Below, piece after piece: positions 3,702 through 28,677 of a stretch of 31,096 bases of DNA. This DNA comes from a virus (lineage: Duplodnaviria > Caudoviricetes): positions 1 through 31,096 of the IMG/VR virus record IMGVR_UViG_3300010052_000199, one strand, 5' to 3'. A program made the position numbers and the translations under genes. The notes beneath the pieces are model-generated. The model had not been told where the DNA came from and made no database searches. It saw only the letters and a list, made by a program, of their open reading frames with translations. How positions within the stretch are numbered: position 1 is the first letter of the stretch; every line of letters starts with the position of its first letter.

Positions 3702-3756
3702 TTTTGTTAAAGGCCCACAAGAGGCATAAGGCACATTTGGCTGCCAATATTAATAT

Positions 3757-4766
3757 ATGCACCTATCAACATTTTATCATTGTTTGACGGCATTAGTTGC
3801 GGTCAGATAGCATTAAACAGAGCTGGAATATAATATTCCAGCTATTATGCGTGTGAGATTGACCAGCACGCTATCAAGGTTACACAAACCAATTACCCAG
3901 ATACCATCCAACTAGGAAATGTTACCGAACTCGATGTAAAAAACCTCCCAAAGATTGACCTTATAATTGGTGGTTCACCATGTCAAGGTTTTTCATTTGC
4001 AGGAAAACAACTCAACTTCGATGATGAACGTTCAAAGCTATTCTTTGAGTATGTCAGAATACTTGATGAAGTAAGAGAAGTTAATCCCAATGTTCTGTTC
4101 ATGCTTGAGAATGTTGTGATGAAGAAGGAATATCAGGATGTGATTTCAGAATATCTCGGAGTTCAGCCAATTCTTATCAATAGCGCACTGGTTTCAGCCC
4201 AAAACAGGAAAAGGTTGTATTGGACAAACATTCCAAATGTTGAGCAACCAGCGGATAAAGGAATTTTGGTCAAGGATATTCTACAAACTGAGGGGCTTGG
4301 AATTCATATTTGTGGAAGAAAAATCAATCCAGAAACAGGTCAAAGAGAAGACAAAAACAAAGAGCTGCCTTACACTCAAATAGCCTACATTAAAGATGAT
4401 GGCAAAACGGGATGCCTAACAACTGTGACTAAAGACCATCTTGTGTATGACCTTGAAAAGGCAAAGCTATCTGATGATGCAATCAGATATATGGATGGTC
4501 TCAGAAATGGTAAGCAGAGATGGGAACATCATAAATATCCGCTTGACGGTAAAGCATCATGCTTGACTGCCAGCCATTCTAAGGGTGTACCCTATACTGC
4601 TATAAAAGAACTTCTAAGGCATCTTACACCAGTTGAAGCAGAACGTTTACAGACGGTGCCCGATAATTACACCAACTCTATAAGCAAAACCCAGCGGATG
4701 AAAGCTTTGGGTAATGGATGGACTGTTGATGTGTTAGCTCACATCTTCAAGAATATCCCTCAATAA
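3757..4766 (+). pseudogene. C5-cytosine DNA methyltransferase pseudogene
   Basis: Frame upstream of ORF 4101 reads PINILSLFDGISCGQIALNRAGI*YSSYYACEID...LIIGGSPCQGFS...LENV (motifs I, IV, VI) and ends LTPVEAERLQ...LGNGW (IX, X); in-frame TAA at 3831-3833, and the ATG at 3757 is out of frame. Confidence 0.9.
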
Positions 4767-4802
4767 TTATCCACCTCGGATAAAAAGGAAAAAAATTTAT
4801 GA

Positions 4803-5351
4803 TTGGATTTAATTACATTGGAAAGGATAAAACTGCTTCACCCAGCAGTCAGAAAAGAAGTGTTGGATATGTACACTCACGTCAACAACAAACTCCTCGG
4901 AAAAGGCGTTAGATTGCGTTTTGCATATACCTTAAGGACCAACAAAGAACAGGATGAGCTATATGCTCAGGGTCGAACAAAATTATTTGATAATACTGGA
5001 AAAAGACTTGGAAAGGTTACCAATGCTAAAGGTGGTCAATCAATTCATAACTACAGCTGCGCCTTTGATATTGTTCTATTACTAGATAAAAACGGTGATG
5101 GGATTTTTGAAGCCGTAAGCTGGGATATGAAAGCAGATTTTGATAAGGATGGTAAACCAGATTGGATGGAAGTGGCTGATTATTTCAAATCGAAAGGTTG
5201 GGAATGGGGAGGTGATTGGAAATTCAAGGATTACCCTCATTTTCAAAAAGATTTTGGTTTAAGCTGGCAACAGATGAAAGCTAAAATTGATAATGGTGAT
5301 TATACTGAAGAAGTTATTAATGGCCAAAAGATTAAGTATATAAATCTTTGA
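4803..5351 (+). CDS. Endolysin, M15 family Zn peptidase (L-Ala-D-Glu type)
   Basis: RTNKEQDELYAQGRT, VTNAKGGQSIHNYSCAFD (SxH...D), WEWGGDWK, DYPHFQ; TTG start. Confidence 0.92.
   Translation: MDLITLERIKLLHPAVRKEVLDMYTHVNNKLLGKGVRLRFAYTLRTNKEQDELYAQGRTKLFDNTGKRLGKVTNAKGGQSIHNYSCAFDIVLLLDKNGDGIFEAVSWDMKADFDKDGKPDWMEVADYFKSKGWEWGGDWKFKDYPHFQKDFGLSWQQMKAKIDNGDYTEEVINGQKIKYINL
5067..5222 (+). repeat. Direct repeat copy 1 (endolysin C-terminal catalytic half)
   Basis: 52 codons colinear with 5982-6137; first 26 bp identical. Confidence 0.95.
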
Positions 5352-5968
5352 TGGGGATTTACCAGATTACTTCCCCATCTGGTAAAATTTATATAGGGTC
5401 ATCTAAAAATATCGAACGAAGAGTTTGGTATTATTCAAAATTACAGTGTAAAAATCAACCCCGATTATATAATTCATTAAATAAATATGGGTGGGAAGGT
5501 CATAAATTAACAATAGTTGAGGAATGTAATTTTGAAGAACTTTATGAAAGAGAAAGATATTGGGGAGATAGTTTAAATGTATTGGGAGAAAATGGACTTA
5601 ATAGTATTTTACCAAAGGCAGGTGAAAACAAAAAAGGCGTAAGTGATGAGACTAGACTGAAGATGTCGATAAGTAAAAGAGGTATCTTAAACAGTAGTTA
5701 CGGAGTGCCTTTATCAGATAAACATAAAGAGGCTATTAGGAAAGCCCAAACAGGTAGAAAACATTCCCAAGAACATAGAAAAAAAGTGTCTGAAAACAAC
5801 GCAAAAAACCTTGCAAAAATTGTTATTGATTTGAAAACAGGAATCTTTTTCGAATCAGCAAAAGAAGCTGCTGAAGCTTACGGTATTAAACATTCAACAT
5901 TGATTTCAATGTTGAATGGAACTAATAAAAATAGAACTAATTTAATTTATGTTGATAATTATAAATAA
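5351..5968 (+). CDS. GIY-YIG homing endonuclease with NUMOD3-like repeats and C-terminal HTH
   Basis: GIYQITSPSGKIYIGSS; VSDETRLKMS and RKHSQEHRKKVSE motifs; FESAKEAAEAYGI; ATG overlaps the endolysin stop (TGATG). Confidence 0.92.
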   Translation: MGIYQITSPSGKIYIGSSKNIERRVWYYSKLQCKNQPRLYNSLNKYGWEGHKLTIVEECNFEELYERERYWGDSLNVLGENGLNSILPKAGENKKGVSDETRLKMSISKRGILNSSYGVPLSDKHKEAIRKAQTGRKHSQEHRKKVSENNAKNLAKIVIDLKTGIFFESAKEAAEAYGIKHSTLISMLNGTNKNRTNLIYVDNYK

Positions 5969-5969
5969 G

Positions 5970-6269
5970 AGTCTTGCTCTAGATATTGTTCTATTACTAG
6001 ATAAAAATGGTGATGGTGTATTTGAGGCTGTGAGTTGGGACATGAAAGCTGATTTTGATAAAGATGGCAAACCAGACTGGATGGAAGTAGCTGATTATTT
6101 CAAATCCAAAGGATGGGTTTGGGGCGGTGATTGGAAATCATTACCTGATGGTCCGCACTTTGAGAAAACCTTTGGTCATACATGGAGAACCCTTCAAGCT
6201 AAATATAATAAGGGAGAAACTTTTGATGAGATAATTGACGGTAAAAAATACACTTGGGTAAAAATTTAA
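5970..6269 (+). pseudogene. Orphaned 3' half of an M15 endolysin allele
   Basis: Begins SLALDIVLL one base after the endonuclease stop; lacks the N-terminal half including SxH; frame open to TAA at 6267-6269. Confidence 0.88.
5982..6137 (+). repeat. Direct repeat copy 2 (endolysin C-terminal catalytic half)
   Basis: 50 of 52 aa identical to copy 1; differences mostly at third codon positions. Confidence 0.95.
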
Positions 6270-6306
6270 CTCTGCAGATCTGAAGTAATATTTTTTTAGA
6301 GCAGCA

Positions 6307-6338
6307 CTTTACTTTATCAGAGTATGACACTATTGTTT
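6307..6338 (+). promoter_or_regulatory. Element-specific motif A (putative late promoter) upstream of the head operon
   Basis: CTTTACTT-N10-TGACACTATTGTTT; both boxes and spacing match 13924-13955. Confidence 0.7.
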
Positions 6339-6343
6339 ATGTA

Positions 6344-7489
6344 ATGATTGGAACTATTTACATAAATGGTATTGTTGGCCAAGACACTACCTTACTAGAT
6401 GTCATTAGACAGGTTAAAGCTTCAAAAGGTGCTACTGAATATCTTGTAAAGATTGATTCAGTAGGTGGTATTGTTGAAGCGGGTCAAGCCATTTATAATT
6501 ACCTAAAAGGTCTTGAAGCTCCTGTCACTACATATACTACAAAAGCGTTTTCAATTGCCAGCTATATATTTCTATCTGGTGATAAAAGAATCATTCCCCA
6601 AGGTACTCCAAATGCTTTAATGATTCACCTTCCTTGGACTGAGGTAAAAGGAACTTCTGATACACTCGCATCTCACGCAAAATATTTGAAGGATGTTGAA
6701 AACGAATTAGTAAAATTCTACGCCACAAGCCTTGAGATTGATGAAAGTGCTATCCAATCTCTTTTGTCCAAGGAAACTTATCTCGATGCAACACAAGCCC
6801 TTGAAATGGGGTTTGCAACTGAAATACAGCCACAAATGAAAGCTGTGGCAATGATAAATAACAAGAAAGAAGAAGATGAAAGTTTGATGAACAAACTAAA
6901 CAAAAAATTATCTCAAATCTTCAACAAGCTATCAGGTGCAAGAGCCGAGTTAATACTTCAGGATGCTACTGGCACTGAGCTGGTTTTTCCAGACCTTGAG
7001 CCAAATGATGTTGCTCAAATAGATGAGAAGGCTACTGTTGATGGAAAGGCAGCTGATGGCGAATTTGTAATGCCAGACGGGTCAACTATAAAGGTTGCTG
7101 GTGGTATTGTTAAAGAAATCGTTCCAGCGGAGGTTGAAGAAGATGAGCAAGCCCCTCTAGATGCCGAGAATGAAGAAAATGAGGACGCACCAGCTGACGA
7201 TAAGGATGCAAGAATTGCAGAATTAGAAGCTGAGAACGCTGAGTTGAAAGCTAAAATTTCAGAACTGGAAGGCAGCAAAACAGATGAGCCATCTGAAACC
7301 GAGAACAAAATGCTTGAGGTAGTAGCGATGGCCGCTGAAAAGGTGAATGAACTTGAAACTAAGTACCAAGCTCTAGCAAAAGCGGTTGGGAGCGATTACC
7401 AGCCGTCCAATAAAAAGGAAAATAAACCAACCGTTAAGGCAAGCGAGATAGCACTTGATAGAGCTTATCAGATACTTAACTCTAAATAA
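6344..7489 (+). CDS. ClpP-type (S14) prohead protease fused to a scaffold domain
   Basis: IDSVGG, AFSIAS (catalytic Ser), LMIHLPW (His), ETYLDATQALEMGFA; acidic coiled-coil C-terminus; precedes capsid. Confidence 0.9.
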   Translation: MIGTIYINGIVGQDTTLLDVIRQVKASKGATEYLVKIDSVGGIVEAGQAIYNYLKGLEAPVTTYTTKAFSIASYIFLSGDKRIIPQGTPNALMIHLPWTEVKGTSDTLASHAKYLKDVENELVKFYATSLEIDESAIQSLLSKETYLDATQALEMGFATEIQPQMKAVAMINNKKEEDESLMNKLNKKLSQIFNKLSGARAELILQDATGTELVFPDLEPNDVAQIDEKATVDGKAADGEFVMPDGSTIKVAGGIVKEIVPAEVEEDEQAPLDAENEENEDAPADDKDARIAELEAENAELKAKISELEGSKTDEPSETENKMLEVVAMAAEKVNELETKYQALAKAVGSDYQPSNKKENKPTVKASEIALDRAYQILNSK

Positions 7490-24497: not shown

Positions 24498-25016
24498 ATG
24501 CGCGGGGCAATAGAATCATTATTAACTAAAATGAAAACACATGAGCAAGAACAGTGGAAAGCTGTAAAACAAAATGAAAACTATGAGGTCTCAAACCTTG
24601 GAAGAGTTAGGCATCATTACAAAAATGGTAAGACAAAGATTCTTTCTCCAATGAGTAACTGCCAAAATGATAACGATTACCTCTTCATCAACATTGATGG
24701 CAAGAAGTACTACATACACATTCTAGTTCTGGAAACTTTTATCGGTGAGAAGCCAATAGGGTACGAATGTGACCACAGAAATAGTAATAGACAAGATAAC
24801 TCCATCAGCAATCTAAGATACCTTACAAGGGCTGAAAATCGCTCACACAAGGGTTCAAAGCATGGGATGGCAAAGCTATCAGAAAAACTGGTTAAGACCC
24901 TAAAGAAATTACTCGATTTAGGTATGTCTCAAAAACAGGCTGCAGAACTGTTTGAAGTGTCTGCATCAACAATAAGCTCCATCGTTACGGGCAAGACTTG
25001 GACCCATGTAGTATAA
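24498..25016 (+). CDS. NUMOD4-HNH endonuclease with C-terminal HTH
   Basis: EQWKAV...YEVSNLGRVR; IHILV...CDHRNSNRQDNSISNL...EN; SQKQAAELFEVSASTISSIVTGKTW. Confidence 0.9.
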   Translation: MRGAIESLLTKMKTHEQEQWKAVKQNENYEVSNLGRVRHHYKNGKTKILSPMSNCQNDNDYLFINIDGKKYYIHILVLETFIGEKPIGYECDHRNSNRQDNSISNLRYLTRAENRSHKGSKHGMAKLSEKLVKTLKKLLDLGMSQKQAAELFEVSASTISSIVTGKTWTHVV

Positions 25017-28032: not shown

Positions 28033-28677
28033 ATGAAAACAAAATCCATTGCCAGATACATTAGAGTATCAACTATTAACCAGAACACAGCATCCCAAGA
28101 AAAGACCAGTCCTGATGAGGTGGTATTCACCGATAAGGTTACAGGTACAATTCCATTTAAAGATAGACCAGCTGGAGCTAAACTCATAGAGGCTATTGAA
28201 TCGGGCCAGATAAAAGAGGTCCGTATCTACAGCGTGGACCGCTTTGGAAGGAGAGCATCTGATATATTAACTATGCTGGATTACTTTAAAGCAAAGGAAG
28301 TTAATGTATATGTGGAACAACTGAACATATCATCAATTGTAAATGGTACACCAAACTTATATTTTGAATTGGTTACTGGATTATTAAGCTGTATTGCACA
28401 AAGCGATAGGGAGAATATATTAGAGAAACAGGCAGCAGGAATCAAGGCTGCAAAAGCGTTGGAAGAAACCCAAGGTATTAAGGTTTACAAGGGCAGAAAG
28501 AAAGGGACGGGCTTAACAGATGAACAGCTTATAGCTAAATATCCGAAGGTTGCAAAAGAGATTAGACTTAATCCAAATCTTTCACTAGAGAAGCTTGCTG
28601 GTATTTGTAAGGTGGCACCGAATACGGTAAAGAGAGTTAAGGCTGCTATTGCTTCACGTTTAGCTGGTGAAGAATAA
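28033..28677 (+). CDS. Small serine recombinase (resolvase/invertase family) with C-terminal HTH
   Basis: YIRVSTINQ catalytic motif, DRPA, VDRFGR, YKGRKKG, SLEKLAGICKVAPNTVKRVK; 214 aa. Confidence 0.93.
   Translation: MKTKSIARYIRVSTINQNTASQEKTSPDEVVFTDKVTGTIPFKDRPAGAKLIEAIESGQIKEVRIYSVDRFGRRASDILTMLDYFKAKEVNVYVEQLNISSIVNGTPNLYFELVTGLLSCIAQSDRENILEKQAAGIKAAKALEETQGIKVYKGRKKGTGLTDEQLIAKYPKVAKEIRLNPNLSLEKLAGICKVAPNTVKRVKAAIASRLAGEE

Follow-up and report, generated by a model that had tools for sequence, protein, structure and literature searches.

The closest described systems to the locus reported here are the mORF gene hybrids of fungal mitochondria, which, in the accessible part of the published account, are known from atp6 of Allomyces macrogynus and from atp6, atp9, cox2 and nad3 of Glomus (PMC3630166). 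In phages, intronless homing is described for the seg endonucleases of T4, in the pairs SegA/uvsX, SegF/gene 56 and SegG/gene 32 (PMC2988022, PMC12724721), and genes-in-pieces are represented by mobE in nrdA of Aeh1 and by mobA in the topoisomerase gene of T4 (PMC2988022). Endonucleases near essential genes have also been treated (PMC10448857), in a text in which no word begins with "lysin", and the literature that we searched, mostly open-access papers without their supplements, yielded no phage description of a lysin-splitting cassette.

Here we analyse a locus in a virus record of the Caudoviricetes (IMGVR_UViG_3300010052_000199), of which the window is the whole stretch of 31,096 nucleotides. 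According to CheckV the record, a provirus, is 42% complete; a module of head and tail genes follows the lysin locus downstream, and an M15 gene is the sole lysin recognised by Pfam and PHROGs among the ORFs scanned. Relatives of this lysin are found in phages of Riemerella, Cellulophaga and Flavobacterium and in Bacteroidota genomes, which makes a flavobacterium the likely host.

Anatomy of the interrupted lysin gene

The first-pass annotation had claimed the order endolysin, GIY-YIG gene, second endolysin 3' half, and this order is indeed seen at 4803-6269:

4803-5351, plus strand: M15 endolysin, whole hybrid gene; TTG start, 182 aa.
4803-5054, plus strand: M15 endolysin of the L-Ala-D-Glu peptidase type, native 5' half; begins with TTG and finishes in ...GQSIHNY; 75/84 aa shared with locus L381 and 73/84 with L090; PHROGs endolysin.
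5055-5066, plus strand: resident junction codons S-C-A-F, predicted to be a likely cleavage-resistant half-site; divergent in nucleotides from the downstream copy and from L381.
5067-5222, plus strand: middle of the resident 3' half, sharing its lineage with the displaced copy; identical to 5982-6137 at 137/156 nt and 50/52 aa.
5223-5351, plus strand: foreign 42-codon lysin tail, adjoining the nuclease and holding Asp143 and His146; 35/42 aa shared with L226; set apart also by its GC.
5351-5968, plus strand: free-standing GIY-YIG/NUMOD3 homing endonuclease, 205 aa; Pfam and PHROGs (homing endonuclease) matches, catalytic residues kept.
5970-6269, plus strand: displaced native 3' half of the lysin, 99 codons, the predicted right homology arm; tail 32/42 aa shared with L381, no internal stop.

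The nuclease ATG at 5351 overlaps the lysin stop, the nuclease stop occupies 5966-5968, and a single G at 5969 separates it from the copy that begins SLALDIVLL. Deleting the 915 bp from 5055 to 5969 preserves the frame and joins ...GQSIHNY to SLALD..., confirming the earlier claim that this removal restores an M15 gene with the junction inside its SxH...D motif; the insert boundary can slide 2 nt rightward because 5055-5056 are the same in both copies. The two copies share a repeat of 157 nt (5067-5223 and 5982-6138; 88% identity, blastn E ~1e-53), and the count of 2 amino-acid and 15 synonymous codon differences over 52 codons given previously is exact for codons 5-56, the total over codons 1-56 being 4 and 17 when the first four codons are included.

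Peptidase_M15_4 is matched in both lysin copies, and the nuclease matches GIY-YIG and NUMOD3 (Pfam). The upstream lysin is full length, carries all motif residues and aligns to Ply500 and LysB4 across SxHxxxxAxD and DxPH, the two motifs of M15 L-Ala-D-Glu peptidases of the Ply500/LysB4 type, whose residues we take to be metal ligands, with His82 presumably the first zinc ligand. A gene in pieces is split so that neither part is complete; here the upstream lysin is whole.

Comparing endonuclease-free alleles by their C-terminus, as the first-pass annotation had proposed, points to the downstream copy as the native one. The best relative of the 5' half, L381 of genome G001, which is nuclease-free, has a tail that shares 32/42 aa with the downstream copy and 20/42 with the resident copy. 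The lysin's 5' half is matched at 80% identity or more in 29 of the 119 nearest proteins, and the tails of these 29 are nearer to the downstream copy in 22 cases, nearer to the resident copy in 4 and tied in 3. Furthermore, at the syntenic locus L090, which also has a TTG start, the lysin is followed by a Clp protease, with neither nuclease nor insert. Together these observations indicate that the 5' half plus the downstream copy make up the old gene, and on this comparison the downstream copy is the displaced native 3' half.

The resident half, judging from the same alignments, is a mosaic: its 4 junction codons are divergent, the next 52 codons are of the downstream copy's lineage, and the tail of 42 codons is foreign. 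At the junction (5055-5066) 7/12 nt differ from the downstream copy, compared with 19/156 beyond it (P 2e-4 to 5e-4), and the resident junction codons have a nucleotide identity of 0.42 to the downstream copy and 0.42 to L381, as against 0.83 between the latter two. The middle segments of both copies match L381 equally well (120 and 121 of 156 nt) and, with pS 0.61 and pN 0.016 over the 52 codons, only 2 of the 19 changes between them are non-synonymous where ~82% would be expected under neutral decay (P 2e-11), so that both lysin copies diverged as parts of working genes. L226, the best match of the resident tail, has a 5' half only 40/69 like that of the window, and the tail has a GC of 0.29 compared with 0.38 upstream, sharing the low GC of the nuclease. 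The initial description of a replacement 3' half therefore holds for the foreign parts, 4 codons at the junction and ~42 at the end, and fails for the middle 52, which belong to the lineage of the displaced copy; correspondingly, the native-downstream, foreign-upstream order of mORF hybrids is found in junction codons and tail, the middle 52 codons being uninformative. In this historical anatomy as such, namely a native 5' half, an inserted half with nuclease and a displaced half, we have high confidence.

Two other origins were considered. Tandem duplication followed by decay is ruled out by the 2/19 non-synonymous changes and the foreign tail. Site-specific integration of a lysin-tail circle appears unlikely, given the distance of the only recombinase found (28033-28677) and the lack of an identical core at the crossover.

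Several further features of the window were recorded. Upstream of the lysin, at 3732-4766, a C-5 cytosine methylase frame with an in-frame TAA at about 3831-3833 and no ATG at the expected start is likely a pseudogene; its stop hints at prophage decay, which counts against a homing reading. A second free-standing nuclease (HNH, phrog_59; 24498-25016) overlaps the start of a sigma-factor-like gene at 24998, and a serine recombinase/DNA invertase gene lies at 28033-28677. An out-of-frame ATG four bases before the lysin TTG opens a 38-codon ORF (4799-4915); L090 keeps the TTG and not the ATG. The 3' end of the nuclease gene contains a perfect 13-bp inverted repeat (5891-5918) and, at 5951-5969, runs ~4 codons longer than in most relatives, its V-D-N-Y resembling the lysin I-H-N-Y 7 nt before the duplicate. 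The stretch 5951-5962 has 2 mismatches to a degenerate I-H-N-Y motif, a score reached at 38/31084 background positions but also in 1/8 relatives' ends; this end may just possibly be a scar of the join. A promoter scan gave 5 matches compared with 7.9 expected, no more than chance.

Lysin-linked relatives of the nuclease and its predicted target

The nuclease is predicted to be an intact GIY-YIG homing endonuclease, with the catalytic Arg, Glu and Asn and a C-terminal DNA-binding region: Y4, Y14, R24, E68 and N84 are invariant in an alignment of 31 relatives, and R24, E68 and N84 align to R27, E75 and N90 of I-TevI (PDB 1mk0, 1ln0 and 1i3j being among the structures compared). A protein search placed its close group at about 50-65% identity. 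Among 69 distinct GIY-YIG ORFs collected from viral scans and from the flanks of other loci, 9 including that of the window score at least 257 bits, the next one scoring 207. All 8 nearest nuclease loci lie directly behind a lysin, 0-104 nt away, and these lysins are of M15 (L302, L306 and L304, the last of a different subfamily from the window's), CHAP (L301, L303, L305), GH19 (L300) and phage lysozyme (L424) type. By comparison, of the 60 distant GIY-YIG ORFs, 56 have an upstream ORF and 1 of these 56 is a lysin, although most of the 56 control genes have no Pfam match and an unrecognised lysin may be among them. On these gene orders, the nearest relatives of the nuclease are free-standing genes directly behind lysins of four unrelated families. 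The nine lysin-adjacent nucleases form a group in the tree with weak support (83/56), in which the sister of the window's nuclease is the GH19-linked one of L300 (97/84). Outside the close group, at L087:3435-4570, a distant GIY-YIG gene stands directly behind a Peptidase_M15_3 gene.

The nuclease genes of this group are optional, intergenic and patchily distributed, as expected of the seg type. No nuclease was found in any of the 195 M15 loci from the lysin search with at least 300 nt downstream, and among 39 GH19 and 76 CHAP loci with the same minimum it was present only at the seed locus. A duplicated lysin tail was absent from all 7 non-window close loci tested, and the flanks of L424 match a single-lysin relative. 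In bacterial genomes, relatives of the nuclease amounted to 1 partial match in 401 genomes of G001's genus and none in 401 genomes of its phylum; a phage collection gave 3 distant records and the P0008 query 2 distant loci. The context of 30 close nuclease proteins is known only where the viral scans reached them.

Within the locus set, the residues that span the junction (83-86) hardly ever depart from N-Y/F-G-L/F, and the three nuclease-linked lysins of the window's M15 subfamily read NYSC (window), VFGI (L302) and QWSL (L306). That locus set under-sampled a lineage with His85, and the motif statistic based on it is superseded by a departure statistic on 333 pooled sequences (157 clusters at 80%, 169 residue windows). 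The shared departure of the three linked lysins from the family profile, a test with n=3, peaks at 83-86 out of the 169 windows, on both sides of the junction; a peak of this size turns up anywhere in 193 of 20000 random triples and in 11 of 20000 random pairs. None of the 157 cluster representatives reaches the departure of L302 or L306 at 83-86, and 5 reach that of the window. Moreover, no more than 1-2 nt separate the junction from the G of the Gly85 codon, which is usually conserved, and I-TevI and I-BmoI require a G right after the top-strand nick, according to the part of PMC5009752 consulted.

Some observations count against the target reading. L302 and L306 are divergent throughout and have their own top windows elsewhere, although the usual 83-86 motif survives in 9 of 10 nuclease-free lysins of similar divergence. 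Residue 85 is also less fixed than the locus set implied, His85 occurring in 70 of the 119 nearest proteins and Ser85 in 9, with Cys86 in 2 and the combination of Ser85 and Cys86 in none. The linked CHAP and GH19 lysins speak for the target reading: they have no such patch (ranks 43 of 43 and 18 of 27), as expected if they are immune by being unrelated. With the two other endonuclease-adjacent M15 lysins as independent support, the junction codons are likely the target of the nuclease. That SCAF is a cleavage-resistant allele is plausible, and weaker than it first appeared, given Ser85 and Cys86 in relatives. In a large M15 lineage (P0140-P0240; L092:3542-4093) the zinc-motif residue that is usually Gly85 is His, possibly through an old escape from such a nuclease.

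Homing model and its rivals

We consider it probable that the window holds a splice-free homing cassette in a prophage M15 endolysin, whose nuclease likely cuts the His-Asn-Tyr-Gly codons. In this model the targets of the nuclease would be M15 alleles free of it, cut at or close to the His-Asn-Tyr-Gly/Ser-Leu codons; the HNY-SCAF gene of the resident would be immune, and so would the downstream copy, in which the left half of the site is missing. The 5' half would provide the left repair arm and the displaced 3' half the right one, and with these arms the cassette would need homology to the lysin only, not shared flanking genes. The cassette may have originated when a free-standing lysin-plus-nuclease donor repaired a cut allele, through a homologous join on the left and an illegitimate one at the break on the right. 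Later recombination, with alleles of the same lineage or with the downstream copy, would have replaced the middle 52 codons while sparing the protective junction codons and the tail, the tail presumably because it was too diverged to recombine. The 88% middle repeat, a point against the model, could then act as a decoy, so that a broken end is repaired off the resident copy without gaining the nuclease, and as a substrate for deletion of the nuclease, which may explain both the rarity of the unit and its homogenised middle.

The first-pass annotation had proposed looking in phage genomes for triplets of gene, endonuclease and duplicated 3' end. For this lysin, no second triplet occurs among 247 loci with matches to all lysin parts (viral, genome and metagenome scans) or in 30 further loci of the genus with 1.5-kb flanks. 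It also counts against homing that the nearest empty alleles, L090 and L381, stand at about 75% nucleotide identity and that no second filled allele was found in these loci. Duplications of a related kind were seen at other genes. At L370:3596-4955 a deaminase (118 aa, dCMP_cyt_deam) is followed by a GIY-YIG gene (3998-4774) and, a few bases after the nuclease stop, by a duplicate of about the last 55 deaminase codons (57% aa over 54), a second half-gene example; at L092:55-989 the last 19 codons of a GIY-YIG gene duplicate the end of the upstream gene in an in-frame fusion (81% nt over 58). These two cases suggest that the arrangement is probably not rare in phages.

The rival that fares best, and that we nevertheless regard as unlikely, is an accident: illegitimate recombination or a transposition-like event would have brought in the lysin tail and the nuclease, with a junction that is no target, a nuclease that cuts at some other place or not at all, and a downstream half that is an inert leftover of recent date. 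It would suit the single instance of the triplet, the separate occurrence of Ser85 and Cys86 in close relatives and the 8 nuclease relatives that sit behind lysins without duplication, as well as a nuclease-adjacent CHAP lysin 94.5% identical to a nuclease-free allele, which shows that the nuclease can arrive without altering the lysin. An accident does not account for a breakpoint that coincides with the residues recoded in two independent nuclease-adjacent M15 lysins, for the 7/12 differences exactly at the junction, or for the intact catalytic residues.

A downstream half kept for a function of its own seems decidedly improbable. Its frame is open and an in-frame ATG at 5949 would yield a 106-aa product, which might serve as an inactive partner or regulator; alternatively, the half might be a silent cassette for swapping tails via the 157-nt repeat. 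The product would, however, be without His82, and the low pN/pS between the copies, which fits such a function, would follow equally if the half came from a working allele. A complete gene already stands upstream, unlike the split genes needing reassembly in the available account (PMC2988022), and such a second half is absent from all relatives surveyed (247 + 30 loci).

A group I intron with an internal endonuclease, whose 915 nt would be spliced out and the 5' half joined to the downstream half, can be given very little credence. Excision does restore the frame, the piece ends in G, and several nuclease relatives carry the JGI label "group I intron endonuclease". Nevertheless, the claim that the insert is fully coding, with no room for an intron core, holds to within one base, 914/915 being coding and 1/915 non-coding; a third of the insert is lysin copy, and no register in 5045-5222 offers both a terminal U for the 5' exon and a terminal G for the intron. 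With Rfam, a cutoff of E<=5 brought out no intron at the locus (3 sub-threshold matches, unrelated), nor was there one at the gathering threshold in 9 related loci. The listed holders of the stretch include no RNA dataset. An assembly artefact joining two phage alleles is just as hard to credit, because 4300-6900 lies in one piece, without differences or joints, on one contig in each of 2/2 runs (which may be the window's own source and are thus not independent support), the longest exact match between the lysin copies is 26 nt, and the reading frames are kept at both junctions.

The homing model can be extended, more tentatively and with rather less than even confidence, to the whole nuclease lineage, as a gene drive against M15 endolysins in phages of Bacteroidota in which cutting at the zinc motif forces three escapes. 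The active-site loop may be recoded (L302, L306); an unrelated lysin (CHAP, GH19, lysozyme) may be paired with the nuclease and then replace the M15 gene (L424 versus L120); or the nuclease may insert at the cut with a duplicated half as built-in homology arm, as in the window, which would thus be a snapshot of a free-standing endonuclease becoming a self-sufficient, intron-like, splice-free element. In L424 the lysozyme and nuclease occupy the place of the L120 M15 gene (HNYGMAFD) from start codon to stop, the flanks being 85% identical before the start codon and 84% after the gene, beginning with the stop. The pairing of L303 with L092 is looser, and L092 already has His85. Lysin swaps were counted at 5/113 nuclease-free CHAP/GH19 loci versus 2/6 nuclease cassettes (P 0.04). 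Because lysins also swap without a nuclease, the replacement is illustrative rather than decisive. The CHAP lysins L301:3536-3976 and L485:1501-1941 are 94.5% identical from start to stop between unrelated flanks, and lysins therefore move as exact cassettes. Lysin replacement between unrelated enzyme families is usually ascribed to host adaptation; if the extended model is true, it would be driven in part by a selfish nuclease, and lysin mosaicism would have such nucleases among its causes.

Comparison with known systems

Like the genes-in-pieces of the accessible account, the window has an intron-less endonuclease insertion in a functionally critical region of a phage gene (PMC2988022). Genes-in-pieces give two polypeptides that reassemble, whereas the window keeps a complete gene and its second half is redundant (PMC2988022). 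With I-TevI and I-BmoI it shares a catalytic domain joined to a NUMOD3-type DNA-binding part and a predicted target in conserved active-site codons; it differs in being without a self-splicing intron, the host gene being rescued by duplication.

The T4 seg genes, in the sections available to us, resemble the present group in that an intergenic GIY-YIG gene lies beside its presumed target and the donor is resistant through sequence difference, a pattern that L302 and L306 fit. In those sections, seg cleavage falls hundreds to thousands of bp away from the insertion site and homology is required on both flanks (PMC2988022, PMC12724721), whereas the window has its predicted cut site at the very edge of the insert, and the duplicate would be the right arm. 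Distant cleavage of the seg type is accordingly predicted to fail at the right edge of the insert in the window and to apply to L302 and L306. The parts of the T4 seg accounts consulted (PMC2988022, PMC12724721) mention no pairing with analogous enzymes of unrelated families (CHAP, GH19, lysozyme).

The likeness to mORF gene hybrids goes further, and by its organisation the window appears to show their structural features, as far as the accessible parts of PMC3630166 and PMC6279837 set them out. A native 5' part, an inserted C-terminal part, an endonuclease ORF and a displaced C-terminal part are common to both (PMC3630166), as are a displaced copy nearest to the relatives and the absence of an intron (PMC3630166), and the GIY-YIG type recurs in Glomus atp9 (PMC3630166). 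In the window, by contrast, the host is a phage lysis gene, the junction lies inside a metal-binding motif, over half of the gene is duplicated and the inserted half is itself a mosaic, while the likely precursor state can be seen in nuclease relatives that stand free and have no duplication.

What our comparisons suggest to be new is the lysin-associated group to which the nuclease belongs, the recoding of residues 83-86 in M15 lysins of the same subfamily and the start-to-stop exchange of an M15 gene for a lysozyme with its nuclease in L424; this lysin-linked group and the predicted cut site are the most valuable part of the analysis. Besides introns and inteins, the locus would represent a third way in which a homing endonuclease can sit harmlessly on the active-site codons of a phage gene that it targets; its likely precursor, the free-standing relatives behind lysins, can be seen beside the product.
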